Below are positions 1,961 to 59,800 of a stretch of DNA of 64,000 bases, one piece after another. Origin of the DNA: Pseudomonadota bacterium (lineage in GTDB: Bacteria; Pseudomonadota; Alphaproteobacteria; Rs-D84). The number at the start of each line of letters is the position of its first letter. Positions within the stretch are counted from its first letter, which is position 1. The translations under genes and the position numbers were made by a program. The notes beneath the pieces are model-generated. The model worked only from the letters and a program-made list of their open reading frames with translations, ran no database searches and had not been told where the DNA came from. Where the stretch lies: assembly GCA_023402015.1 (NCBI GenBank), contig JAEXCU010000015.1, positions 825 to 64,824 of the forward strand. Reading direction: 5' to 3'.

Positions 1961-1995
1961 ATAATCCCGCGCCGCCACAGGCTGTGCAGGACAAG

Positions 1996-2168
1996 AAAAA
2001 CCGCCGTGATTAAGGGCGGTTGGAGGTTAAGAACTATCAGATAATAGTGCTGCTTATTGTGCGCGAACGCATTATTCACAGCCCTCCAACCAGGTTGGAG
2101 TAAATATTTAATGTCATTTCTGACAATCTGAGAGGTTCTTACACCCCGCACTGGTAATCAACCAATGC
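1996..2168 (-). ncRNA. structured leader/sRNA, copy A (promoter TTGAAT-17-TATAAT at 2203..2175, terminator at 2020..1996)
   Basis: Reverse complement aligns with 44748..44898. It has the same promoter, 5' hairpin (gcattggttgattaccagtgc), CTCCAACC-loop-GGTTGGAG hairpin and the 3' end gttcttaacctccaaccgcccttaatcacggcgg plus a T-run. Confidence 0.45.
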
Positions 2169-2219
2169 GAATGAATTATACAATGAATATTTACACAATT
2201 CAATAATAAACAGAGCCTT

Positions 2220-4301: not shown

Positions 4302-4976
4302 TTAGAAACCTTTGGGTTTTTCCATTTTTACAGACGACACTTTTTTATTCAATGCAGAAACAACTTCGTCTGTGATATCCAGGTTTTGTGCATTTGCACC
4401 CGTACGCGCAAAGCGGCCGTCAATTACCAAAGACAAATTCTTTTTGGCAATGATGCCTTCTATGACCGGGTCCAAATGTTTGGCCTGTACTTCGTTCAGG
4501 GCCTTTTGAAACGCCACCTCGATGCTTTGGGCGCGTTCTGTCAAATCACGTTGCAATTTTGTAACGCGGTTTTGATAATCCACAACGCGGCGCTGTAATG
4601 CATCACGGGATAAAACATCCTGGGATTTTTCAATTTCGGCCTTTTCTTTTTCCAATTCTTTTTGGGTTGCGGTCAATTCATTACGCAGTTTTTCTTCGTA
4701 CGATTCTTTCTGTTTGCGCAGGTCTTTTAATGCCGTTGCGTCGTTTTGAATCGCATCCATACGGATAACCGCAATACGCAGGTTTGCACCGTTTGCCGCA
4801 TCGGTCGTAATGGTTTCCATTACTTCTTCAACAGATGCGCCACCGGAACGCGCAGACCCCAGTGCCCATACCCCCAATGCCGCGACCGCAATAACCGCCG
4901 CAACGATGATACCGCCGCGTGCATATTTTTTTGCCGCGGATTTTTCTGATTGTTTGTTGTTTGCCATATTTTCCAT
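4302..4976 (-). CDS. skp: OmpH/Skp-like periplasmic chaperone
   Basis: N-terminal hydrophobic segment followed by a long K/E/Q-rich coiled coil. Conserved position upstream of lpxD. Confidence 0.7.
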   Translation of the reverse strand: MENMANNKQSEKSAAKKYARGGIIVAAVIAVAALGVWALGSARSGGASVEEVMETITTDAANGANLRIAVIRMDAIQNDATALKDLRKQKESYEEKLRNELTATQKELEKEKAEIEKSQDVLSRDALQRRVVDYQNRVTKLQRDLTERAQSIEVAFQKALNEVQAKHLDPVIEGIIAKKNLSLVIDGRFARTGANAQNLDITDEVVSALNKKVSSVKMEKPKGF

Positions 4977-6208: not shown

Positions 6209-7753
6209 TTATTTGGTCAAACCGATGATTTCGGCGTTTTCAAATAAACTCATTGCGCTGGCAACCATGGGGTCGGATTCCAATTCGGATTGATTTTGTT
6301 CGGCAACCGTTGCGACATGTTGGGATTCTGTGGCGCGTTCCAATGTCCACGTTTTGCCCGTTTTATCTGTCAACCATGCGGACAGGCGTGGCGGGAAATC
6401 TGCGTCGCCTTTGCGGTCATAATATTTGATTGTGCCATTTCCAAATTCAACGATTTCAATATTACTGCTGTAATAAGAAAACAGTAATATTTCCTTGGTT
6501 TCCTGTAATGCGGCAGCCAAATCTGCGGCAGATTTTAATTCACGAAACTTGGGTTTTTGGGCCACCACATCCGGTTTTTTCGTTGCGGCGATGGTTGGCT
6601 TGGGGCCAGCCGCCTGTTGTTTCAGTATTTCAGAAACCGGTGGCATATCCGCAATGTGCATTAATCGCACGATTAACATATCAAAGCATTGCTTTTGATT
6701 GCCGGCCGATTGCATTTCACCAACAGATGCAACCATAACCTGCCATATGCGCGACAGGGTATTCAAAGAAACCTTTTCATTTATATTACGAATTTGTTCA
6801 CGCTGGTCCGCGGTGTATGGGGAATTTATTGCGTCCCCCGCGTGCAGGGCCGGATGCATACGCGTCGCCCAATGTGTCCATTCCATCATATCGCCCAATA
6901 ACATGGATAAATCCGCGCCATTGGTATAAATTTCATCTGATTTTTCCAATGCGGTTGCAACATCGCCCGACAACAGTGTTTTCATAAATTCAACAACCAC
7001 GCCGCGGTCGGCGCGTTTTAACATATCCATAACGGCGGCTTCGTCCACATGACCACCGGTTTGGGCAATTGCCTGATCCAACAGGGATAATCCATCGCGC
7101 ACAGATCCGTCTGCCGCGCGGGCCAACAATTCATTTGCAGCATCCGTCAGTTGGATTTTTTCTTGGTCTGCAATCCATGCGAAATGTTTTTTCAGGGTTT
7201 CAACCGGAACGCGGACCAAATCAAAACGCTGGCACCGGGATAAAATGGTAACAGGCACTTTGCGAATTTCGGTTGTGGCCAAAATAAATATTACGTGTGC
7301 TGGCGGTTCTTCCAATGTTTTCAGCAATGCGTTAAATGCAGATGTGGACAGCATGTGCACTTCGTCAATTATATAAACCTTGTACCGGCCATTGGTTGGT
7401 CTGTATTGCGATGCATCCAAAATGTCGCGCATATTGTCCACACCCGTATGCGATGCGGCGTCAATTTCCAAAACGTCAATGTGTTGACCTGCGGCGATTG
7501 CACGACAATTTTCACATTTACCACATGGCGTTGCAGTTGCGCGGTCAGATGATTGGCAATTTAATGCCTTGGCCAGAATGCGCGCAGTACTGGTTTTTCC
7601 GGTACCGCGAATTCCGGTAAAAATATATGCATGCGCAATGCGCGATGTGTTGATTGCGGTGGTCAGTGTTTTTACCAAAACGTCCTGGCCGATAAGTGAT
7701 TGAAAATCTTGGCTGCGATATTTTCGTGCTAAAACTGTGTAATTGCTGTCCAT
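6209..7753 (-). CDS. dnaX: DNA polymerase III subunit gamma/tau
   Basis: Walker A GIRGTGKTS, Zn module CGKCENC, VYIIDEVHMLS, sensor LSRCQRF. Start set to MDSNYTVLARKYR (ATG 7753). Confidence 0.9.
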   Translation of the reverse strand: MDSNYTVLARKYRSQDFQSLIGQDVLVKTLTTAINTSRIAHAYIFTGIRGTGKTSTARILAKALNCQSSDRATATPCGKCENCRAIAAGQHIDVLEIDAASHTGVDNMRDILDASQYRPTNGRYKVYIIDEVHMLSTSAFNALLKTLEEPPAHVIFILATTEIRKVPVTILSRCQRFDLVRVPVETLKKHFAWIADQEKIQLTDAANELLARAADGSVRDGLSLLDQAIAQTGGHVDEAAVMDMLKRADRGVVVEFMKTLLSGDVATALEKSDEIYTNGADLSMLLGDMMEWTHWATRMHPALHAGDAINSPYTADQREQIRNINEKVSLNTLSRIWQVMVASVGEMQSAGNQKQCFDMLIVRLMHIADMPPVSEILKQQAAGPKPTIAATKKPDVVAQKPKFRELKSAADLAAALQETKEILLFSYYSSNIEIVEFGNGTIKYYDRKGDADFPPRLSAWLTDKTGKTWTLERATESQHVATVAEQNQSELESDPMVASAMSLFENAEIIGLTK

Positions 7754-19279: not shown

Positions 19280-19390
19280 ATCGTTGTTTTGTCAATAAAT
19301 TATAGGTGCGCGAAATCAAAAATTATTGCGCGATGATTTTTATCTTTCCAGTGGACAATTTTTATGTTAAAATTGTACCTAAGAGAGAAT

Positions 19391-21349
19391 ATGAAACATC
19401 TGGCCAGATTTTTATTATTTGCGATTGCATTGGTGTCTGCGGACGGCTTTGCGTCGCCTGTTCCATCCACATTGGGCAGTAATTTAACCGCATACAACGG
19501 CGGGTCCGGCGCAACCAACAATAACAATTGGAATACATTAATGAACAACCGCACTGGCGGCGCAAACGCGCCCACGGCGGATTTTGGTAATTGTAATGCA
19601 TTAATTTTGCGGTGCGCACAACCAAAATGTGCAACCGGTGGATGTACCAGTATGGATGTTGCGCGCCCAATCGTTTCCGGTTGCGTACAATCCAATGAAA
19701 CATGCAAACAATATGGTAATGATTTAATAGAATATATTTCTGCGCAATTGGTGGCCAGTTCAACGGCCAAGGCCAATGCCCAGAACGCCGCCGCGCAAAA
19801 TGCGGCCGCCCAGGCCGCGGCCCAACAAAGCGCCCAGCAATTGCAACAAATGCAGGCCCAGATGCAGCAAATGCAATCACAGATGGCCCAGCAAAACGCC
19901 GAAACCGTTGCCCAGTTGCAAAGCGCACTGGAAGAACAAAAACAATTAACGGCCCAGGCCATTGCCGATGCAAACACCGTGGCCCAGCAGACGGCGGGTG
20001 CCCAAGATATTGCCGCAACGGCAATTGACGGATTAACGGGCGCACAAACATCGGCGGCGGCATCTGGGGTGTCGGCCGATGTTTTGGCACGTGAACAAAT
20101 TTCCGGCCAAATATTGTCCAAATTGGAAAATGCCCAAACGGCATTAAAGACATTGCAGGCCGCAATGAACAACACGTTTGAATATGCGGGTTGTGATAAA
20201 AATGGTGATAACTGCGCCGGGCCAAAGCGGGTGAAAGCGTTTAAAAACCGTGCGATGCAGTTCTTTGAACCATATAACGATGTGTTGGATGAATTATATG
20301 ATGCATTAATAATGGCCCAATCATTGGGTGTTGATATTACGGATATTTACATGATGCTGAACGGAACATGCAACGCATGGGCCCAGTATTTATGTGGTCC
20401 CGGCCAGGTTATGCATTACACAACGGCCAATTGCAAAAATGGTCGCAGTGTGCCCGAGGCCGTACCGTCATCATACACAGCCGAACAAAGAAGGAGTTTT
20501 GGAACCGTTCGCGGTGGTGCCCGTTGTGAAATCGGCCAGGTTGTACCAATGAGCGACGGTGGATGCCAGTTGGCCAAAATGTTAACCAGTGATGAAGAGG
20601 TTCGTCGTGATTGGTTGTACCCCGACGAAGGTACCCAACCGGGTGTAGAGGTTCGTGTTGGTTGCGCGTCCGAGGCATTGGAAAATTCCGCATTATTCCG
20701 CAACCGTAAAAAACAGGCAACAATTGACATTGAAACATTGCAACGCATTATTGAACAGGATGCGCCCGCCGTATATGGCACCAGCAGACTCAGCAACGGC
20801 ACAAAACCCAATCCAGATGGGGTAAAATTCTGCGCGGTAAATGCGGACAGCCTGCAAGAATTACAAAAATCGGTCAGTTTAAAACAATTGCCCAAGAAAG
20901 TCTGTGTGAATGATGATTATTTAAAAAGAACATGGGAAAACAATGGTGCGATTACGATTGCAACGGCATCGGGCACAACATCGTCATCACAATCAACATC
21001 ATCCGGTTTGGCAATTTTGGATTGCACCAGTTCATTATGGAAAAATTCTGATGAATGCAAATGTCGCGTTTCTGGTGGCAGTTGGTGGGGTACGGGATGT
21101 TCATGTCCACAGTTTTATAAACTTGTTAATAACGAATGCCAGTTCCAATTGGGCAGTAATTATAATTTTGGAACCAGTGATAGTTTAAATTCAATGACGT
21201 CTGGTGTACCAAAAAACGTTGACTTTATGCAACAGACTTGTGAACAAAAGAATGGCACGTATCGTGATGGTAAATGTTATTGCGGTGAGAACGTAATGAC
21301 AATTGGAACATGTGAATTTCAAGGATTAAAAAAAGTCATAAGATTATAA
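19391..21349 (+). CDS. 652-aa secreted Cys-rich protein with Q/A-rich coiled coil
   Basis: Start at MKHLARF after RBS aagagag. Signal peptide. NCNALILRCAQPKCATGGC (C-x6-C-x4-C-x4-C). AQNAAAQNAAAQAAAQQSAQQLQQMQAQMQQMQSQMAQQ tract. EGF-like Cys spacing at the C-terminus. Confidence 0.7.
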   Translation: MKHLARFLLFAIALVSADGFASPVPSTLGSNLTAYNGGSGATNNNNWNTLMNNRTGGANAPTADFGNCNALILRCAQPKCATGGCTSMDVARPIVSGCVQSNETCKQYGNDLIEYISAQLVASSTAKANAQNAAAQNAAAQAAAQQSAQQLQQMQAQMQQMQSQMAQQNAETVAQLQSALEEQKQLTAQAIADANTVAQQTAGAQDIAATAIDGLTGAQTSAAASGVSADVLAREQISGQILSKLENAQTALKTLQAAMNNTFEYAGCDKNGDNCAGPKRVKAFKNRAMQFFEPYNDVLDELYDALIMAQSLGVDITDIYMMLNGTCNAWAQYLCGPGQVMHYTTANCKNGRSVPEAVPSSYTAEQRRSFGTVRGGARCEIGQVVPMSDGGCQLAKMLTSDEEVRRDWLYPDEGTQPGVEVRVGCASEALENSALFRNRKKQATIDIETLQRIIEQDAPAVYGTSRLSNGTKPNPDGVKFCAVNADSLQELQKSVSLKQLPKKVCVNDDYLKRTWENNGAITIATASGTTSSSQSTSSGLAILDCTSSLWKNSDECKCRVSGGSWWGTGCSCPQFYKLVNNECQFQLGSNYNFGTSDSLNSMTSGVPKNVDFMQQTCEQKNGTYRDGKCYCGENVMTIGTCEFQGLKKVIRL

Positions 21350-21357
21350 AAATAATA

Positions 21358-22125
21358 ATGAATAAAAAAAATAAAATCTTTGCTGGAATTTACACAATCA
21401 CAAAACAAATGCGATTTGCATTTTTCGTTATTTGTTTGTGTGCGGTATCGGGTAATGTTTATGCGGCGGATAATGGTTGTATGGATGAAGATAATGACCG
21501 CATAACACCGGAATTGGCGTTATGCAGCACCCATGTTTTTAATATCGGCGATGTCAGCAATCCGGCCAATGATAACGACAAACAATTAATGCGCGACGTT
21601 GTTGCGTTAAAGACAACCGTCATGACGCAACAGATGAAAAAGCAATATGATTATCTTGAGGCCACAATTCGTCGCTTTAAGACCCAGTTGGAAAAGGCGA
21701 TTCTGACCACCAAATTACAGGCCGCGGGTGCCACGGATGATAATTCCGGTGGCGGGGCCAGTGCATCGCGCGATAAAAATGTTGTTTTAATTGGCGCAGA
21801 AAATTGCATGCTGAAAAGTTCTACGTCCGCGGGTCTGACATGTATCCAAAGTAATATTCGTATTGTTTTACAGGCCGTCAGTGCCGGCAACGTAGGCGAG
21901 GCATATCGTCAATTGCAAAAAGATTTGGGCTTTGCCAACAGTTATGGCGTTAAATGCGGTGGCAATCAATGCGATACATATGAAAAATGCAAAGATTTAC
22001 GCGCCAACCGCGAAAAAGTAAACGATTGCGCATATCAGTTGAATATTGCCGTTATGCAAAAGATAGAAGAGGCATCGCGCCAGCAACAAAATAATCGCCA
22101 GAATGGCAATAACATGTTTCAGTAA
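21358..22125 (+). CDS. secreted hypothetical protein (255 aa)
   Basis: Hydrophobic signal-like segment FAFFVICLCAVSGNVYA, scattered Cys, Q/N-rich tail. Starts 9 nt after the upstream gene, so likely co-transcribed. Confidence 0.55.
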   Translation: MNKKNKIFAGIYTITKQMRFAFFVICLCAVSGNVYAADNGCMDEDNDRITPELALCSTHVFNIGDVSNPANDNDKQLMRDVVALKTTVMTQQMKKQYDYLEATIRRFKTQLEKAILTTKLQAAGATDDNSGGGASASRDKNVVLIGAENCMLKSSTSAGLTCIQSNIRIVLQAVSAGNVGEAYRQLQKDLGFANSYGVKCGGNQCDTYEKCKDLRANREKVNDCAYQLNIAVMQKIEEASRQQQNNRQNGNNMFQ

Positions 22126-22146
22126 TACACAGAATAATCAGGTGTC

Positions 22147-22175
22147 AAAATCCCCGCCATACGCGGGGATTTTTT
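22147..22175 (+). terminator. rho-independent terminator
   Basis: aaaatccccgccatacgcggggattttt. Confidence 0.75.
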
Positions 22176-22505
22176 CGTGATACGTGAAACGTGATACGTT
22201 TTCCCCCATTGTCATTGCGAGCCACGATAGTGGCGTGGCAATCAATATATAAAGTTGCAAAGTTCATTAAATGACTGGATTGCTTCACTACGTTCGCAAT
22301 GACAATGTTGGCACGTAAATATCTTCTCTGTCATTGCGAGGGACGCCAGTCCCGTGGCAATCCATAAATAAAGCGGCACAATTCATTAAATAACTGGATT
22401 GCTTCACTTCGTTCGCAATGACAAGGGGGACCAAAACATATCTACTATGTCATTACGGGCGCACATGTCGCGGCCACACAAAGTGTGGTCGGACGGCAAT
22501 CCAGC
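22176..22505. repeat. repeat island: CGTGATACG motif followed by 95-bp palindromic GTCATTGCGAG units
   Basis: cgtgatacgtgaaacgtgatacg at 22176..22198. Full units at 22210..22304 and 22329..22423. Degenerate half unit at about 22448..22505. Confidence 0.85.
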
Positions 22506-22567
22506 CCCGGCAACATTTATACCAGATTTTAATGGAATTGTTTCCGGAATTCGTGTATAATATGTCA

Positions 22568-22985
22568 GAATCCATAGGGATATGGATTCGGGGCCTTCAA
22601 AAAGCCTACCTAGTACGGTGCGAAAGTATCGTTATCCGATGTAATTGGTGCCATTCGCACCGTTATATCCCCGCACATAAATGGTCGGGGAGCCATTGGT
22701 TATAAAACACGGGCAACCGAAAGACCAATGGGGTCATTACTAGGTGATTTTTTGAACTCCCCGACCGCCCAGGTTCTCTCCCGGCGGTCTTTTCATTGGG
22801 AAATACGGGCACAACTGAAAGAAACAGAATAACAGAAATACTTCGTTGCCTGATTTCCCAGCCTATGCGGGGTTTGGTCAGATTCCTAATCAGCAAATTG
22901 TTTCTTTTCCTGCCCCGCACTTTTTTTATGGGGACAATTAAATACGGTGCGCAAAACACGACTAAGGTATTTGTCCCCCACCGGG
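22568..22985 (+). ncRNA. structured RNA of unknown class, copy 1 (5' core 22568..22794 plus conserved 3' domain)
   Basis: Putative promoter tggaat-17-tataat (-10 at 22556..22561). Helices: 22568-76/22581-89 (GGGA loop), 22615-24/22654-63, 22683-92/22757-66, 22693-700/22724-31, terminator-like 22763-89, and 22797-811/22847-60. All are preserved in copy 2 with compensatory changes. Confidence 0.6.
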
Positions 22986-22996
22986 TTATCGCCCAT

Positions 22997-23383
22997 TGTC
23001 ATTGCCCACCCGATAGTGGCGTGGCAATTCAAAAGTAAAGCACCTAAGTTTATTAATTATCTGGATTGCCACGGTCGTTGCACTCCCTCGCAATGACAAA
23101 GATGTGTATGAGTGTTCTTCTCTGTCATTGCGAGCCACGATAGTGGCGTGGCAATCCACAAGTAAAGCAACAAAGTTTATTAATTATCTGGATTGCCACG
23201 GTCGTTGCACTCCCTCGCAATGACAAAGAAAAGGCGCGAAAATTAATTAGAATATATGAAAACAAGCGCAGCGCAGTTTAAATATGTACCAAGGATACGC
23301 GCAGGCACAAAGTGCCCAGCGACAATGGCAGCATGTAAATATCTTCTCTGTCATTGCGAGCCACGATAGTGGCGTGGCAATCT
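22997..23383. repeat. repeat island: palindromic GTCATTGCGAG...GGCAATCC units
   Basis: Units at 22997..23098 and 23123..23225 (about 102 bp, near-identical). Half unit at 23349..23383. Confidence 0.85.
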
Positions 23384-23427
23384 AGAAAAATGTTTCATTG
23401 GGGGCGCTGGGTTTGCAAACCGTGGAA

Positions 23428-24084
23428 TTATGGTTTTATCAATTCGCCACCTTCGATAATTTCACCACCACCGATTCCGCCACCCAGGATACTGTATTTG
23501 CAATCGTCTGTTAATTGGTATGTGCCCGTGTCATCAGAATATTCGCATGTCTTGCCCAACATGTCAGGTTTGGCGACCTGATAACAATCTGTTATGCCGT
23601 TCGCACCATAATTTAAACTGGCCGAACCGCAATTTTTAAATTCAAATGTATCCGGGTCATAAACCCCGCTGTCGGTTTTTGTATTCCCGGGACATGCCAC
23701 GCATCCATAACCATCGTGATACCAACCACTGCGGCATTTTATTTTTTCACATTCGCATGTTTCTTCATTCAGTGTATTTCCCGCCATACACATCATGGCG
23801 CCGCAGCCAATGCATTCGCATGTGTCCGGATCTTGGTCGCCCATGCATATGTTGGGGCATACGCATTCCCCATTCTGATATACTTTTGGGTCTGCGCATT
23901 CAAATCCTACGCAATAACTGGAATCATAAACGCATCCGTTCGGCAGGCATCCGCCCGCAGGTGCCGGATTTGCACAACGATAACAATCCAAACATTCTGG
24001 GTAAATCATCTGGGCGGCATATGAATTTGTGCCCCATGCCATTGCAATTACCGCGGAATATAAACCGACGTTTGTATTAGGCAT
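23428..24084 (-). CDS. small secreted Cys-rich protein (furin/VSP-like C-x2-G-[YW]..C-x2-C repeats)
   Basis: Signal peptide, about 30 Cys in 218 aa, CRSGWYHDGYGCVACPGNT module, C-terminal DDTGTYQLTDDCKY motif shared with 33486, 35413 and 35743. Confidence 0.65.
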   Translation of the reverse strand: MPNTNVGLYSAVIAMAWGTNSYAAQMIYPECLDCYRCANPAPAGGCLPNGCVYDSSYCVGFECADPKVYQNGECVCPNICMGDQDPDTCECIGCGAMMCMAGNTLNEETCECEKIKCRSGWYHDGYGCVACPGNTKTDSGVYDPDTFEFKNCGSASLNYGANGITDCYQVAKPDMLGKTCEYSDDTGTYQLTDDCKYSILGGGIGGGEIIEGGELIKP

Positions 24085-24305
24085 AAATTCGGAGGATTAA
24101 ATATGAGAGTTTCTGGGATTTTTAAACTTTACATAATGCCAATAATAAACGTCCCTTTGGATTCGGCATTGTGTAATACTGTGTATGCAATAAATTATAT
24201 CGTTATGGGCATGTTTATGCAACATTTTTGTTCATTAACGTGCAGAATTTGCCGCATATAACAAACGCCCCGTGTGGGGCGTTTAATTACGTATTATTGC
24301 GAACA

Positions 24306-25613
24306 CTATGGACACAGGGCCAATTGGTTCAGCACATTCTGAATATCTGTGTTGACAGATACTGTGATTTCACGTTGCAGGCCGTCTGTGTATGTATAAA
24401 AGAACTTTTCATTCGCAAATTCCGGCAGTGTCTGGTAAACCTGTTGGAATGGGGCCAGCATTGCCGTAAACCATTGACGGCCACGGCACAAACATCCATT
24501 GCGAACATCGGCCGCAACCGCCGCCGTTGCCGTATTTGGATATTTTGTATCCAGTTCTGTGTCCGACATCATCAGGCAACGTGCGCCAAATCCATAAAAG
24601 TTCGCATCGTCGGCCATAAATTTGTAAACCAATCCGTCGGATGCGCCCGCCCGTTTCAGCGAATAAACCATTCCGTCGGTGCAACATGCATTTGCCGAAT
24701 TCATCAGCATTTTGTACCGCGCCAGCAATGGTGCCGCCGCCGGATCATTTGCAGTGATGTCCGGATTGCAACGCGCCGCCGCAATAAATACATCCATATT
24801 ATCGGTACGGATTTTTGGACTGCGCGGGGATACGGTTTCGCGGACAATCGGTTTTCTGCGCCAAATTTCGCATTCTGTTTCAGATTCAAACGGGCAACCG
24901 TCTGCGGCCCCAAATGTTATCTGGACCACCTGGGTCATATCCTGGGCGGTGTATTCTGGGCGTGGCGCCGGCAACGACGGTGTTGCCGTTGGTTGTGACG
25001 CGGCCAATGTTGGCGTATTTACCCATAAATTTTCAGATGGTTTTTGCGGGTTCAGTAATTCTTCAATTCTTTCGCGCGTTGCGGCGGCATCTGCCATATT
25101 TTGATTGTATATGGCGACCATGCTGTCTTCGCGGGCAATTTCCACGGGCGTGGTTGACATGGCCGGTACGTCCGCGTCGCGGATATATAATTCATCCATT
25201 GGTTCCAAGAACCAATCACTGAAATCTTTGCTTTTATAACTGACGATTGAATCATCCCAAATCGGCACGCCGTCGCGCCAATCAACCGTTTTGTCGTATC
25301 CGCGCGGTTTGTAATTGTTGCCCGTTCCGTCCCATACCGGTGCGCGATTGTCGGCCGGCACAGGTTTAATGGATAACAATTTCATCTGGCGCATTGGAAT
25401 CTGGTCGGCATAAACGTATTCCGACGGCATCGCATAATTCATCGCCGCAGGTGCGACGGACGGCGCCGTTATTACATCCACAACCGTTGCGTCTGTTATA
25501 ATCGGCTGTGCAATTGGGGCAATGTTGCATCCCGCACCAATGCAATCAGATGCATGACCTGGAATCCCGCACAAACACAGCAGTGAAGAAAATATAGCAA
25601 TTTTAGTTTTCAT
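24306..25613 (-). CDS. secreted hypothetical protein (435 aa)
   Basis: Start at MKTKIAIFSSLLCLCGIPGHA (ATG 25613). Pro/Thr-rich middle and Cys-containing C-terminal domain. No family recognised. Confidence 0.6.
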   Translation of the reverse strand: MKTKIAIFSSLLCLCGIPGHASDCIGAGCNIAPIAQPIITDATVVDVITAPSVAPAAMNYAMPSEYVYADQIPMRQMKLLSIKPVPADNRAPVWDGTGNNYKPRGYDKTVDWRDGVPIWDDSIVSYKSKDFSDWFLEPMDELYIRDADVPAMSTTPVEIAREDSMVAIYNQNMADAAATRERIEELLNPQKPSENLWVNTPTLAASQPTATPSLPAPRPEYTAQDMTQVVQITFGAADGCPFESETECEIWRRKPIVRETVSPRSPKIRTDNMDVFIAAARCNPDITANDPAAAPLLARYKMLMNSANACCTDGMVYSLKRAGASDGLVYKFMADDANFYGFGARCLMMSDTELDTKYPNTATAAVAADVRNGCLCRGRQWFTAMLAPFQQVYQTLPEFANEKFFYTYTDGLQREITVSVNTDIQNVLNQLALCP

Positions 25614-25698
25614 AATACGAATCATATCATAAAAATACTGTCTTTGAAAATACAAAATTAATTCGGCATTTATTCATTTTGCGCAATTTTCAGTATTC

Positions 25699-26550
25699 TT
25701 GTATCGTTATTCGTGGCGGGGAAAGAAATTGAGAAAATTTTTTGCATCTTTTTTAATTATCACCGTTTCATTATCTGCGCGGAAATCATATGGCCTGGCG
25801 GGATTGCAATTGGGCGTTGGTGCATCGGCAACCGGCGGGGTAAATGTTATTGCGGGATACGCCAATCGCAATTCAGACGCATGGTTTTGGCGAAAATTTG
25901 GGTTCAGGGCGGATTTTTCATCCACCACGCCCGTTAAATCAACAATGAACGCGGTGGTTCGCGCCGTTATGGGCGACGGTGTGCATGCCGGAACAGGACT
26001 GGAAATATACCAAGGCGAAATTTATTCGCGCAGTGCGGCCGCATTGGTGGACTTTTATCCCGTGGCCGGCGGTAAATTCTGGCGCGGGTTTCGTTTAACG
26101 GGCGGATTTGCGGGCGGTGTTTTATCATTAAATACAAAATTAACCGGCCCATATCATGCCGCACCACCCGATGCATTTGTTTTTAAGATATTTGGTACAT
26201 ACTATTATTACGCGGGCAATGTTGTAAATGGCACGGCGAAAATAGATTGGAATTATTCTGGGGCGTACTTTGGTATGGGCTATGAAACGGGATTTTGGAA
26301 CAATTTCGCCATTTATTTGGATGTTGGCGCGGTTTTCAGTGGCCGGGCGGCGCATTTATCACTGAATATGCCCTTTAAAAACCTGTACCAATATGATGAA
26401 CAGACGGGAACCTGGCAAAGTGTTAACAGTCCTCAATTACAAAGAACCGTAGATAAAATAAAAAATCAGGCGGTTATGGATGCCAATGATGAATTATCCC
26501 GAAAAAAGATATTGCCCGTGGTGAAAATTGGCTTTCTGTATCGGTTTTAA
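25699..26550 (+). CDS. outer-membrane beta-barrel-like protein
   Basis: Signal-like FFASFLIITVSLSA, alternating Gly/aromatic beta-strand pattern, terminal ...IGFLYRF ending in Phe. True start may be the in-frame TTG at 25729. Confidence 0.55.
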   Translation: MYRYSWRGKKLRKFFASFLIITVSLSARKSYGLAGLQLGVGASATGGVNVIAGYANRNSDAWFWRKFGFRADFSSTTPVKSTMNAVVRAVMGDGVHAGTGLEIYQGEIYSRSAAALVDFYPVAGGKFWRGFRLTGGFAGGVLSLNTKLTGPYHAAPPDAFVFKIFGTYYYYAGNVVNGTAKIDWNYSGAYFGMGYETGFWNNFAIYLDVGAVFSGRAAHLSLNMPFKNLYQYDEQTGTWQSVNSPQLQRTVDKIKNQAVMDANDELSRKKILPVVKIGFLYRF

Positions 26551-27147: not shown

Positions 27148-28651
<1,504 letters not shown>

Positions 28652-28786
28652 TAGAGAATACCGTTTACACGAAAACGGTCAAATCCAAACGCGACTGTCT
28701 GAATATCTCTTTTTGAAATGGCGAATAATTCTGGTATCAGCGGAACTATTGAATAAAAGATATTTTCGTAAAATCAGAAATAATCT

Positions 28787-28863
28787 GGGTCAGTAGTTCA
28801 GTTGGTTAGAATGCCGCTCTGATACAGCGGAGGTCGAAGATTCGAGTTCTTCCTGACCCACCA
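28787..28863 (+). tRNA. tRNA-Ile (anticodon GAT), CCA encoded
   Basis: Cloverleaf: acceptor gggtcag/ctgaccc, anticodon stem ccgct/agcgg with loop ctGATac, T-arm gaaga-ttcgagt-tcttc. Confidence 0.9.
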
Positions 28864-29118
28864 CTTAATTTGATGAGGTTGGAATCAGAAACAAGTGATT
28901 GTTTTTGATTCCAGATGTTCCAGTAATATCTTCGGAATCTGCTTTTATAGCAATACATTGTGAATCGGTTTATATGTCGCAAATTAAAATTTATAGAAAT
29001 ATAAAACTTTGATTTGTTGAACATCGTATAATAATCTCAAAAATCTTTCTAAAATTTAAGAGTAATCACGAAAGTGATAATTCAATTAGAAAACAAGAAT
29101 CAACTGAAAATGCTTAAA

Positions 29119-29148
29119 AGACGTTTAACAAACGTCTGCTCATTTAAG
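29119..29148 (+). promoter_or_regulatory. boxB-like hairpin plus boxA-like element in the 16S-23S spacer
   Basis: Hairpin agacgtt-taaca-aacgtct followed by tgctcatttaag (compare E. coli boxA tgctctttaaca). Confidence 0.3.
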
Positions 29149-29195
29149 TTCTTTTATTAAGTGCCAGAAGACATTCTCTTCAAGCATAAGATAAA

Positions 29196-31935
<2,740 letters not shown>

Positions 31936-32039
31936 TTTATCTTATCGTTTGACTTTATGTCAGACGAATGCTTGAAGAGAACGTTGACAATTGATTCTTA
32001 TTGATTATAATGATGTTCGCTGGATTTATTCTGGTGATT

Positions 32040-32143
32040 ATTGAGCGGGAGCCACCCTCTGTTCCATCCCGAACCAGACAGGGAAACCCCGTATCGCCGA
32101 TGGTACTTTGGCTTAAGCCACGGAAGAGTAGGTCGTCGCCAGA
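32040..32143 (+). rRNA. rrf: 5S ribosomal RNA
   Basis: tctggtg...ccgaac...cgccgatggtactt...agagtaggtcgtcgccaga. The terminal stem is extended by ggatttatt/aataaatcc. Confidence 0.9.
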
Positions 32144-32178
32144 ATAAATCCAGTTTACGACATATAAACCGAATTTAA

Positions 32179-35742: not shown

Positions 35743-36180
35743 TTAATTAAGGTTAATACATCCTTTGCAATAGTGTCTGCCACCACTGTCTGTTTTATTG
35801 GTTGTGCTGATTTCATATAAATATTCTTTGGTGGTTTTTATCGTTGGACTGCACGATCCATAATTTTGTTTCAGATATCCTGTATCATCACTGGCAACAA
35901 TAATATTGTCTGTACGTGTGCACAGTGTTGTTTCTGTGCCGTTCAGGTTTGTTTGTGTTGTCATGCTCCAGCCCGCCGGGCATGTTTCAGATGATGTTTC
36001 CAGATAACAAATCGGGCAGCAGTATTGACCAGATTTGCATTGCGCATTGCATTCGGTTTGGGTTAGTCCCTGGGTTTCACTGAAACACATTAGATTGGTT
36101 GGATCCAATTTACTGACCGCCATGGATGCATTTGATGTGGTAATCATTGCAATGATTATAAGAAATTTTGTTTGTTTCAT
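35743..36180 (-). CDS. small secreted Cys-rich protein (145 aa)
   Basis: Start at MKQTKFLIIIAMITT (ATG 36180). CKSGQYCCPIC, DDTGYLKQNYGSC motif. Confidence 0.55.
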   Translation of the reverse strand: MKQTKFLIIIAMITTSNASMAVSKLDPTNLMCFSETQGLTQTECNAQCKSGQYCCPICYLETSSETCPAGWSMTTQTNLNGTETTLCTRTDNIIVASDDTGYLKQNYGSCSPTIKTTKEYLYEISTTNKTDSGGRHYCKGCINLN

Positions 36181-36490
36181 AATTTTCGTCCCCGATAAAG
36201 TCAAATAAAAAACCGTCATAGGAATGACGGTCGGGGATTGAAAAATCATATTGTGGAATGATCCTGCGGCCTTTGGGCATGCCCTGTTTTATAACCGCAG
36301 ATCCCCGACATATAATCGGGTGATAAAACATACGGCGCAAACCGCGCCGACATTTTCAGTCGGATTACAACGCCGAAATCAGCGCTGCCACAATACGGGA
36401 TTTTTCAGTTCCCTGAGCCAACATCCCTGTTGATTCATTTAAGATTATAAAAAAGTGGCGCCCACAACACAAGTGTTTTATCATTGCATT

Positions 36491-37030
36491 ATGATTTTAA
36501 AACGCGATTTTTATTTACAGGACCCATTTGACGCCGTACGCGGTTTGCTGGGGGCGTATTTATGTCGCACAATGGATGACGGCACAATCATTCGCGCCCG
36601 TATTGCAGAGGTGGAATTATACCACCAATCCGAACGCGCATGTCATGCGTTTGGCGGCCGATGCACCACCCGCAATGACGCAATGTTTATGGCAGGCGGT
36701 CATGCATATGTTTATTTATGTTATGGTTTGCATAATATGTTAAACATTGTTCTGGGGCCGGCCGATACGGCAATGGCGGCATTGGTGCGTGCGGTGGAAA
36801 TTCCGGGCGGAAATGGTCCGGGAAAATTATGCGCCACAATGGGAATAACGCGCGCGGATAACAAATTGGATTTAACGCTGGGGCAAAAAATGTGGATTGC
36901 GCCGCGTGATACCACCCCAGAAATTATTACTGGTCCCCGTATTGGTGTGGATTACGCTGGAACGGATGCAAAACTGCCCTGGCGATTTGCAATCGCAGAC
37001 AGTGTGTATATCAGCAAACCATTTAATTAA
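36491..37030 (+). CDS. mpg: DNA-3-methyladenine glycosylase (Mpg/AAG family)
   Basis: LLGAYLCR...IAEVELYHQSERACHAFGGRCTTRNDAMFMAGGHAYVYLCYGLHNMLNIV is characteristic of the PF02245 family. Start set to MILKRDF. Confidence 0.85.
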   Translation: MILKRDFYLQDPFDAVRGLLGAYLCRTMDDGTIIRARIAEVELYHQSERACHAFGGRCTTRNDAMFMAGGHAYVYLCYGLHNMLNIVLGPADTAMAALVRAVEIPGGNGPGKLCATMGITRADNKLDLTLGQKMWIAPRDTTPEIITGPRIGVDYAGTDAKLPWRFAIADSVYISKPFN

Positions 37031-44520: not shown

Positions 44521-44700
44521 CGTGATACGTGATACGACTTTCTCATTTGTCATTCCACTCTGCACTTCGTTTGCTCACAATGACAAAATTATTTATATTC
44601 GTTATCCGTAATACGTGAAACGTGATACGACTTCACCATTGTCATGGCGAGGCACGTCAGTGCCGTTGCAATCCTGCCGTCTTTGCAATGCAAAGCCGCG
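44521..44700. repeat. repeat island (CGTGATACG motifs plus degenerate GTCATT... units)
   Basis: cgtgatacgtgatacg at 44521..44536, ccgtaatacgtgaaacgtgatacg at 44606..44629, ttgtcatggcgaggcacgtcagtgccgttgcaatcc at 44639..44673. Confidence 0.75.
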
Positions 44701-44747
44701 CCATGTTTATTATTGAAATATGTAAATATTCATTGTATAATTCATTC

Positions 44748-44898
44748 GCATTGGCTGATTACCAATGCGGGGTGTAAGAACCTCCAATATAAAAATTCTC
44801 CAACCCGGTTGGAGGGTCGTGATATATTTGAATAAGCGACACTATTATATTGTAGTTCTTAACCTCCAACCGCCCTTAATCACGGCGGTGTTTTTTTA
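44748..44898 (+). ncRNA. structured leader/sRNA, copy B, directly upstream of an XRE gene
   Basis: Promoter TTGAAA-17-TATAAT (44713..44741). 5' hairpin gcattgg-ctgatta-ccaatgc, ctccaacccggttggag hairpin, terminator ccgcccttaatcacggcgg plus T8. The HTH ORF starts 23 nt later. Confidence 0.5.
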
Positions 44899-44920
44899 AC
44901 AAAAACAGCGAGGAAGAAAA

Positions 44921-58932: not shown

Positions 58933-59262
58933 ATGAAAGAATACAATTTTTGGGTTTATATTTTGTTTAATGAACGTGCCCAAGCGACGTACATAGGTAT
59001 TACAAATAATCTGGAACGCCGCATGTACGAACATAAAATGGGATTAGATAAAGGATATACCCGTCAGCATAATATTCATAAACTGGGGTATTTTGAACAT
59101 TATAAATACGTAAACAACGCCATTGCCCGTGAAAAAGAATTAAAGAAATGGAAACGTGCATGGAAATATCGTTTGATAGAAACAATGAACCCGGAATGGA
59201 AAGATTTGGCGGATGATTTGGAACAAAATATTCAGTACTGGAAAAATAAACAAACTGCATAG
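58933..59262 (+). CDS. GIY-YIG nuclease-family protein (UPF0213/YhbQ-like)
   Basis: WVYILFNERAQATYIGITNNLERRMYEH (GIY...YIG...R...H) followed by REKELKKW (catalytic Glu region). Confidence 0.8.
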   Translation: MKEYNFWVYILFNERAQATYIGITNNLERRMYEHKMGLDKGYTRQHNIHKLGYFEHYKYVNNAIAREKELKKWKRAWKYRLIETMNPEWKDLADDLEQNIQYWKNKQTA

Positions 59263-59335: not shown

Positions 59336-59375
59336 AAGTATGGAATTGTTTCCAATATTGGTGTATAATATGCCG

Positions 59376-59800
59376 GAATTCACAGCGATGTGGGTTCGGG
59401 GCTTTAGAAAGCCCGGCAAAACCGGTGCAGAAATGTACCGTTATCTAAACTGATTGCGGTGTCAACTGCACCGTTATCTCCCGGACTTATATGGTCGGGG
59501 AGCCGTTGGTTATATAACAGGGTTCGCCCAAAGACCAACGGAGTCGCTAAGTTTTGCCGATTTTCTAACTCCCCGACCGCCATCTTCTCTGGGCGGTCTT
59601 TTTGTTGGGAAACGGGTGAAAAAAATAAAATTAGCAATAAAAAATTCAGGCACCTGTTTCCCCGACCATGCGGGGGTTGTTTTCATACCTCATCCACACA
59701 TACTTGTATGAAAACACCCCGCACTTTGCATGGGGGCAATTATATAATTTTATATTGGTGCGCAAGACACTACTGAGTGAATTGTCCCCGCCCTGTTTCC
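59376..59800 (+). ncRNA. structured RNA of unknown class, copy 2 (5' core 59376..59603 plus conserved 3' domain)
   Basis: Putative promoter tggaat-17-tataat (-10 at 59364..59369). Helices: 59376-84/59389-97 (GCGA loop, two G.U pairs), 59423-30/59466-73, 59493-502/59569-78, 59503-10/59534-41, terminator-like 59575-98, and 59607-18/59651-62. Confidence 0.6.

Follow-up and report, generated by a model that had tools for sequence, protein, structure and literature searches.

The stretch of DNA analyzed here, hereafter the window, is 64,000 nucleotides (nt) long (positions 825 to 64,824 of contig JAEXCU010000015.1, assembly GCA_023402015.1) and belongs to a Pseudomonadota bacterium of the alphaproteobacterial lineage Rs-D84. 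The window is chromosomal, since it carries a ribosomal RNA (rRNA) operon at 27149-32144. It also carries the element that is the subject of this study, a structured RNA leader that was found five times in the window, three times in a form called type 1 and twice in a shorter form called type 2. Two of the type 1 leaders, referred to as copies 1 and 2, lie in segments that an earlier note, made from the letters alone, had described as two divergent paralogs of one structured RNA of about 420 nt; that count of two thus rose to five.

The earlier description of the two segments proved accurate in most respects. When each copy was compared with the window via blastn, 22532-22978 and 59340-59789 were reciprocal plus-strand matches that aligned end to end (70.45% identity over 467 columns; E = 7.6e-47). 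Both copies contained the promoter-like block ATGGAATTGTTTCC...GTGTATAATATG and helix H1, which reads gaatccata/GGGA/tatggattc in copy 1 and gaattcaca/GCGA/tgtgggttc, with two U.G pairs, in copy 2. Helices H3, H4, H5, and H6 were each found as the note gave them. No open reading frame (ORF) was common to the copies; the ORFs called in them differed in frame and sequence. The reported neighbors were also present: an ORF beside copy 2 (58933-59262) matched the Pfam family GIY-YIG (E = 1.2e-17), and repeats resembling repetitive extragenic palindromic (REP) sequences lay on the flanks of both copies.

What had to be revised was the extent and the identity of the RNA. In each copy, a strong hairpin followed by a U-run (22763-22793 in copy 1 and 59575-59603 in copy 2) splits the aligned segment, and the supposed 420-nt RNA is a composite: a leader of about 235 nt that ends in an intrinsic terminator, followed by a separate downstream module of about 190 nt. 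The note had been unable to name a class, and the core of the leader turned out to be a three-way junction like those of sRNA-Xcc1 and the phage antisense RNA C4, as judged from a subthreshold Rfam match and the fold. Hence, the observation was confirmed and the interpretation placed on it was partly supported.

The leader family and its address blocks

Species-representative genomes were scanned with the pattern TCGGGGA N4-8 GGTTATANAACA N8-12 AAAG. The scan yielded 40 loci, nearly all of them in metagenome-assembled genomes (MAGs) of gut or rumen Alphaproteobacteria, several of which were titled Candidatus Enterousia; one match fell in coding DNA by chance. At these loci, a TATAAT box opens the unit and a GC hairpin plus U-run closes it. 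R1, a covariance model constructed from 37 sequences, detected 45 leader copies at 132-222 bits, as well as weaker matches that defined type 2. Together, R1 and the type 2 model (R2) each detected the opposite type at 18-41 bits. The third type 1 leader of the window was found through a weak blastn match and has the TATAAT box, H1, junction, and terminator seen in copies 1 and 2.

The structure was derived by running RNAalifold on an unfitted MAFFT alignment of 37 homologs. It consisted of H1, H2, a local H3 hairpin, H4, H5 with an inner stem, hairpin B, and the terminator. In total, 96.2% of the cells in the alignment were paired, compared with 32-48% when the partners were slid, 28 of the 45 pairs were changed on both sides, and none of 500 shuffles reached any of the observed measures. 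The proposal that the copies are paralogous, plus-strand structured RNAs with real compensatory changes therefore held in a larger alignment. Because G.U pairs are frequent, the strand is fixed. The U-run after the terminator hairpin was visible in the family alignment, and most of the 40 leaders in the alignment had a TATAAT-like hexamer at the equivalent position ahead of H1. For H3, the long-range pairing proposed earlier stood (88.7% paired), but an alternative with two local hairpins was about equally well supported (91% and 89%); both schemes are possible because the four segments involved are repeats of one another.

At curated thresholds, Rfam placed no family on either copy, and the models for RNase P, tmRNA, 6S RNA, signal recognition particle RNA, riboswitches, and the T-box gave no match; the note had been unable to match the first four or the cobalamin and TPP riboswitches. 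A search in E-value mode did yield a significant match over H4 and H5, to RF02221 (sRNA-Xcc1), that fell below the gathering score of 53 bits: 22683-22774 of copy 1 scored 49.8 bits (E = 8e-8), and 59493-59586 of copy 2 scored 42.4 bits (E = 5e-6). The alignment spans model positions 1-87, the isolated fold of the domain agrees with it, and helices 4-7 covary, all of which point to the sRNA-Xcc1 type of three-way junction. RF02221 did not detect copy 3 or type 2, and the cut-off was not reached by any of the more than 20 leaders tested from 18 other loci. The C4 family, RF01695, scored 17.8 bits (E = 1.4) in copy 2 only, against a cut-off of 45. By their thresholds, the leader is not a member of RF02221 or RF01695. 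It is an unannotated, multicopy family of C4-like build in uncultured gut and rumen Alphaproteobacteria (Candidatus Enterousia and relatives), and we regard the family and its structure as solid. Since Rfam thresholds at present miss all of these leaders, there is an annotation gap.

Two pairs of complementary segments, which we call address blocks, set the leaders apart from one another. Block X is the 7- to 9-nt segment just before CGGUGC, and it is a perfect complement of X', a part of the hairpin B loop that is immediately followed by UGAU. Block Y is the loop of H2, and its partner Y' is the joiner after UGAU. When X:X' runs were measured in fixed 11-nt windows, the perfect run within a locus was 6-9 nt in all 40 leaders, compared with a median of 3 nt across loci; only 11 of 1560 cross-locus pairs reached 7 nt. 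The best Y:Y' run averaged 6.2 nt within a locus and 3.07 nt across loci. Both address pairs were also present in type 2. There were 38 distinct X blocks among the 40 leaders, and the codes differed even among leaders within one genome. X diverged 4-7 times faster than the remaining leader, as illustrated by loci L005 and L013, which share 692 bp at 95% identity up to the terminator while X and X' each differ at four positions. In L005 and L007, X is also complementary to the start-codon sequence AAUGAAG; we judged this to be chance because ATGAAG is a common ORF start.

The position of the leaders relative to genes was equally regular. In about 33 of 38 loci, a Shine-Dalgarno (SD) sequence and an ORF followed 11-28 nt past the analyzed leader region, which ends a few bases beyond the U-run, and this spacing leaves no room for a separate promoter. 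An N-terminal hydrophobic segment was present in 20 of 32 downstream ORFs, and 5 had a lipobox. Pfam matches among the downstream ORFs were to GT2, LicD, Stealth, outer-membrane beta-barrel (twice), and Listeria-Bacteroides repeat families. The common theme of the downstream genes is the cell surface, as most of them have a signal peptide or an outer-membrane or surface-glycan assignment. In the window, the third leader is directly followed by an ORF (35743-36180, minus strand, start at 36180) for a small Cys-rich protein, the N-terminal hydrophobicity of which was 1.88, just below the cut-off of 1.9.

Alternative pairings and the proposed switch

The leader contains elements that could form mutually exclusive helices. 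Upstream of the junction is seg1, whose sequence imitates that of seg3; either segment is able to pair with seg2. The terminator shares bases of its 5' arm with seg3 (4 nt in copy 1). The arrangement that we looked for was that of an attenuator, with helices 1:2, 2:3, and 3:4, the last being a GC hairpin plus U-run directly upstream of the gene. The three segments read UCCCUGAC/GGUCGGGGAG/CUCCCCGACC in type 1 and CUCCAACC/GGUUGGAGG/CCUCCAACC in type 2. Although all three are altered jointly, the complementarities among seg1, seg2, seg3, and the terminator are kept in both types, which matches the attenuator arrangement at the level of pairing.

Among the single-sequence minimum-energy folds of 39 leaders, 37 contained a long interrupted helix that joins GGGG-Y-X with X'-Y'-CCCC, 35 contained the seg1:seg2 hairpin, and 34 contained the full terminator. 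When the Xcc1-like junction was forced, the mean cost was 11.6 kcal/mol in a calculation that does not score pseudoknots. RNAalifold returned the closed fold, described below, when it was applied to type 2.

We put the probability at roughly 55% that the leader is a self-targeting antisense attenuator of the kind represented by C4, CI, IsrK, and sRNA-Xcc1, with locus-specific address codes and placed before surface genes. This reading draws on the family, the covarying helices, the address pairing, the alternative pairings, and the position before genes, all of which were observed in silico; from these we infer RNA production, conditional termination, the sign of regulation, and any action in trans. 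The predicted transcript would consist, from 5' to 3', of H1, H2 with the Y loop, X, the H3 domain, seg1, the junction (seg2, H5, hairpin B with the X' loop, the Y' joiner, and seg3), and the terminator that overlaps seg3. In the closed fold, the 5' GGGG, Y, and X would pair with X', Y', and the CCCC of seg3, and seg1 would pair with seg2. The terminator would then be free to form, and transcription would stop before the downstream gene. In the open fold, seg2 and seg3 would pair to form the C4-like junction, four terminator pairs would be lost, and RNA polymerase would read through into the gene. Because the address blocks differ between copies and yet match within each copy, each leader would recognize itself alone, either in cis or in trans, where its own short terminated or processed RNA might act on nascent transcripts. 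For copies 1 and 2, the cargo after the terminator would be the three-hairpin RNA module of about 190 nt, which has no ORF and would be transcribed by read-through.

Several results weigh against this proposal. A simple sigma-70 scanner did not call the promoters of copies 1 and 2, which have no good -35 element, and a simple terminator scanner did not call their terminators, which have long loops (more than 8 nt in copy 1) and, in copy 1, only four U's. It is also conceivable that the conserved UUAUAAAACA functions as an internal -10 element. In addition, seg2 and the H5 motif were held constant in the pattern used for the search, and for that reason H4 is nearly invariant within type 1, where one variant (L002:4025) has a compensatory change (GGGAAG/CUUCCC); the apparent support for a switch comes largely from five type 2 sequences and a few variants. 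The fast divergence of X and Y could reflect relaxed constraint together with recombination among paralogs, as in the mosaic allele at locus L050, rather than selection for orthogonality. A downstream target in the style of phage P1 was not apparent when the blocks were compared with the 100-110 nt downstream of the leader: X' gave runs of 5.0 at its own locus and 4.8 across loci, and X gave 4.6 and 4.5. Finally, because the energies ignore pseudoknots, the junction with an X:X' loop contact could be the native state, in which case no switch would be needed.

This last point leads to a reading in which the leader is a constitutive structured 5' untranslated region or RNA-stability module with a fixed, pseudoknotted fold. 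Here, X:X' and Y:Y' would be loop contacts, the leader would neither switch nor recognize itself, and the variability of the blocks would be neutral compensatory drift. The covariation of all helices, including H2 and hairpin B, makes a single fold with an H2-hairpin B loop contact topologically possible, and an energy comparison that cannot score pseudoknots does not speak against it. We consider it quite unlikely, since conservation of seg1 keeps an additional partner available to seg2, both types have a terminator that overlaps seg3, four positions have changed in X and four in X' where the flanks have diverged by 5%, and blocks of this sort set specificity in the P1 group. Somewhat different evidence bears on the idea that the leaders are stand-alone genes for trans-acting, C4-like antisense small RNAs (sRNAs), with the junction released by RNase P and its own terminator. 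X' and Y' would then be a seed for unlinked mRNAs, such as those of mobile elements, the upstream X and Y would mask the seed or guide processing, and the adjacent ORFs would be a by-product of a compact genome. C4 is processed by RNase P, the core resembles sRNA-Xcc1, which has been described as a trans-acting sRNA, a promoter and a terminator are predicted in every copy, the seeds are highly diverse, and no ORF lies behind copies 1 and 2. These features fit, but the same-strand SD sequence and ORF at 11-28 nt in about 33 of 38 loci leave no promoter room, so the downstream gene must be transcribed through the leader. Moreover, a search of the 64-kb window for other bipartite Y..X sites returned only the leaders themselves, and the seg1 mimic of seg3, present in both types, would be needless in a simple sRNA gene. 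On balance, this reading is unlikely.

The original view of a single RNA of about 420 nt, the two halves of which act jointly, must also be considered. The window copies do align over their full length, the 3' hairpins are retained in both, and the 3' part, which has no promoter of its own, would be cotranscribed by read-through. Against it, 45 other leaders lack the 3' part, and a conserved hairpin and U-run lie between the halves. When the 3' parts alone were compared, blastn gave just a 75-nt match at 71% identity. The clearest case is locus L050, where the flanking protein is unchanged and a comparison by eye puts the 3' module at about 98% identity with that of copy 1, but X, Y, X', Y', and H5 differ from copy 1 and H1 resembles that of copy 2. 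Because L050 keeps the module and carries a different leader allele, the two parts are separable, and a joint RNA is very unlikely. The leaders are therefore exchanged or fast-evolving. The 3' module is specific to this species and evolves independently of the leader. Locus L052 has the same allele as the window.

If the self-targeting attenuator is correct, the leaders would amount to a natural library of orthogonal RNA switches that could serve as engineering material. A broader version of the idea is that gut Alphaproteobacteria adopted the phage immunity-RNA design of C4 and CI in perhaps tens of chromosomal leaders per genome, with private two-block addresses that make each gene for a surface protein or surface glycan respond to no RNA but its own. 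In this full form, the proposal is doubtful. If true, it would mean an RNA-based, locus-specific, self-recognizing on/off switch, possibly bistable, that allows combinatorial surface variation without DNA rearrangement.

Window features, the 3' module, and genomic surroundings

The coordinates of the leaders and their parts are collected in Table 1.

Table 1. Leaders, leader parts, and 3' modules located in the window
Feature	Position	Strand	Basis and details
Copy 1, promoter-like TGTATAAT	22554..22561 (TATAAT 22556-22561)	+	Read from sequence
Copy 1, H1 hairpin gaatccata GGGA tatggattc	22568..22589	+	Helix 1: 9 pairs, 8 changed on both sides, 95.8% paired
Copy 1, H2 hairpin; loop is address block Y TTCAAAAA	22590..22607 (Y 22596-22603)	+	Arms covary (helix 2); Y complements Y'
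Copy 1, address block X CCTAGTA	22609..22615	+	Perfect complement of X' 22738-22744
Copy 1, H3 domain with repeated CGGUGC/GCAUCG/CGGUGU/GCACCG segments	22616..22665	+	Covariation; two alternative pairing schemes
Copy 1, seg1 UCCCCG	22668..22673	+	Folds, type comparison; able to pair with seg2, sequence mimic of seg3
Copy 1, sRNA-Xcc1/C4-like three-way junction	22683..22766	+	RF02221, 49.8 bits; isolated fold z = -5.0; helices 4-7 supported
Copy 1, seg2 GGTCGGGGAG	22683-22692	+	Within junction
Copy 1, H5	22693-22731	+	Within junction
Copy 1, hairpin B with X' TACTAGG	X' 22738-22744	+	Within junction
Copy 1, joiner Y' TTTTTGAA	22749-22756	+	Within junction
Copy 1, seg3 CTCCCCGACC	22757-22766	+	Within junction
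Copy 1, intrinsic terminator: GACCGCC, 13-nt loop, GGCGGTC, TTTT	22763..22793	+	Helix 8: 4/6 pairs compensatory
Copy 1, 3' module	22795..22985	+	Fold z = -1.8; H6 22797-22860, H7 22868-22918, H8 22930-22978
Copy 2, promoter-like TGTATAAT	59362..59369	+	Sequence, alignment
Copy 2, leader	59372..59609	+	Model R1, 189.7 bits; RF02221, 42.4 bits
Copy 2, H1	59376-59397	+	Within leader
Copy 2, Y TTAGAAA	59404-59410	+	Within leader
Copy 2, X GGCAAAAC	59415-59422	+	Within leader
Copy 2, Xcc1-like domain	59493-59578	+	Within leader; X' 59551-59558, Y' 59562-59568
Copy 2, terminator	59575-59603	+	Within leader
Copy 2, 3' module H6, H7, H8	59604..59800	+	Fold z = -3.8; alignment
Third type 1 leader, without 3' module	36200..36441	-	R1, 160 bits; X TATTGTGG pairs with X' CCACAATA
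Type 2 leader	1987..2172	-	R2, 178 bits; seg1 CUCCAACC, seg2 GGUUGGAGG, seg3 CCUCCAACC; X UCAGAU pairs with X' AUCUGA
Type 2 leader	44744..44902	+	R2, 153.8 bits; X CAAUAUAA pairs with X' UUAUAUUG; SD sequence and ATG 44922 downstream

The 3' module, of which only three sequences are known, comprises three hairpins, H6, the terminator-like H7 (followed in copy 1 by a U-run at 22921-22927), and H8. Its folds had z values of -1.8 in copy 1 and -3.8 in copy 2. No homolog was found in 56 loci or in a metagenome pattern scan with GGTGCGCAARACACNACTRAG; the only other copy was the L050 ortholog. Neither the leader nor the 3' module yielded a conserved reading frame or leader peptide.

The PBP1A protein that adjoins copy 2 is 85-91% identical to proteins of alphaproteobacterial MAGs, and at that locus these relatives have no type 1 leader and no 3' module. 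The GIY-YIG gene and the copy 2 element are both absent from the syntenic Inositol_P-PBP1A gap of relatives (L047 and L048). In L047, that gap holds a type 2 leader on the opposite strand (about 4700-4900). Different leaders seem to reuse intergenic gaps. The suggestion that the RNA might co-occur with GIY-YIG genes or palindromic repeats was not borne out: neither was present in the 40 other loci or in the syntenic PBP1A loci of relatives, and we rejected a link to either. The repeat motif CATTGCGA/TCGCAATG occurs 25 times in the window, and REP-like palindromes (GTCATTGCGAG...GGCAATCC) are dense in places (e.g., 22320-22430, 22990-23200, 1900-1990, and 44640-44700). The REP 8-mer was found 25 times in the window, compared with at most once per 8-kb locus in other genomes; the repeats are genome-specific and unlinked to the RNA family.

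Two other origins were considered for the leaders and rejected. A phage or plasmid origin received no support from blastn searches of phage and plasmid collections, and viral contigs scanned with the family pattern gave no match. The leaders also do not look like miniature inverted-repeat transposable elements: no terminal inverted repeats or target duplications were seen when the flanks were read by eye (no repeat finder was run), and the orientation of the leader relative to the ORF behind it never varies, nor does the short distance between the two.

A number of further observations concern the places in which leaders occur. In the window, the third leader diverges from a methylpurine-DNA glycosylase gene (36455-37030), and exact-protein look-ups for the proteins around it matched no record. 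Several long ORFs around copy 1 (19364-26550) had no Pfam match, and one 661-aa protein had a weak low-complexity match. Elsewhere, locus L023 has a type 2 leader (6274-6456) and a type 1 leader (6572-6814) in tandem on the same strand. At L008 (about 1090-1240) and L028, the leader is followed by about 150 nt of extra noncoding sequence with a hairpin and then by an ORF that begins MSRTAIKELTAAYRAVLKHAF. Transfer RNA (tRNA) genes were found within a few hundred bases of several leaders (L014, 5206-5360; L010, 2308-2381; upstream of the leader in L005 and L013), and L005 and L013 share a tRNA-plus-leader block that is followed by unrelated downstream genes. Contigs L051-L056, which have identical flanking proteins and are probably from the same species, end inside or right beside leaders. 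This suggests that the repeated leaders break short-read assemblies of these genomes, which tend to end at leaders.

Comparison with known RNA systems

The best Rfam match of the leader, over the full model, was sRNA-Xcc1. Both have an outer stem that encloses two hairpins, the first of which carries an A-rich internal loop and a GAAAG-type motif. In the integron cassettes of Xanthomonas, sRNA-Xcc1 is located directly upstream of symE on the same strand (bioRxiv 10.1101/2025.06.18.660453), and in Xylella islands it is present in multiple copies about 381 nt apart (PMC12189769). The leaders differ in that the match is an 85-nt domain of a 235-nt unit and in that the integron context of sRNA-Xcc1 was not seen for the leaders analyzed here.

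The likeness to C4, encoded in the immI operon of phages P1 and P7, extends to the arrangement of the antisense blocks. C4 folds into an outer stem and two hairpins, with block b' in the loop of the second hairpin and block a' in the 3' joiner. In the GenBank record of P1, a 77-nt C4 RNA is marked inside a transcript that also contains putative C4 target sites, a1 and b1, upstream of c4; the functional sites, a2/b2, are downstream, over the icd ribosome binding site. In our leaders, the junction is likewise embedded in a leader, X' and Y' occupy the b' and a' positions, and the blocks in the hairpin B loop and the 3' joiner are complementary to two upstream sites in the same transcript, in equal order (Y, X here and a1, b1 in P1). 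In an alignment of P1, P7, D6, and SJ46, nearly all differences fell in a1, b1, b', a', a2, and b2, and all were compensated, within a scaffold that was 94% identical. Thus, the P1 group resembles the leader family in having fast-evolving, compensated blocks inside a conserved scaffold. In these phages (L049, P1; L057, P7; L058, D6; L059, SJ46), changes in a1/b1 are matched by changes in the C4 blocks and in a2/b2 across the sampled immunity types, which argues, at the level of sequence comparison, that the "putative" a1/b1 sites are functional. The leader family may help to explain these upstream P1 sites, because in the leaders the upstream sites are the only targets and are strictly kept. 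The differences from P1 are considerable. No counterpart of the a2/b2 site over the icd ribosome binding site was found for the leaders. What the leaders have in addition is an intrinsic terminator overlapping the outer stem, a further 5' domain (H1 and H3), and the seg1 decoy. They are chromosomal, multicopy, and located before cell-envelope genes, whereas the P1 system is located before the antirepressor.

Two other phage and prophage RNAs provide precedents for a self-targeting leader RNA that acts on its own transcription unit. In phage P4, the processed leader RNA CI base-pairs with nascent transcripts at seqA (upstream) and seqC (downstream), and transcription terminates prematurely as a result (PMC4825925). 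The sRNA IsrK of the Salmonella prophage Gifsy-1 ends at a terminator of its own; read-through yields a longer form that is an mRNA and on which the short form acts in trans (PMC4825925). Both are single-copy switches of phage or prophage immunity or induction. P4 has the additional downstream seqC, and IsrK controls translation rather than termination. The proposed likeness of both to the leaders is one of mechanism. C4, CI, and IsrK have been treated as one-off phage or prophage devices; the leaders described here are a large chromosomal family before envelope genes in which each member has its own code.

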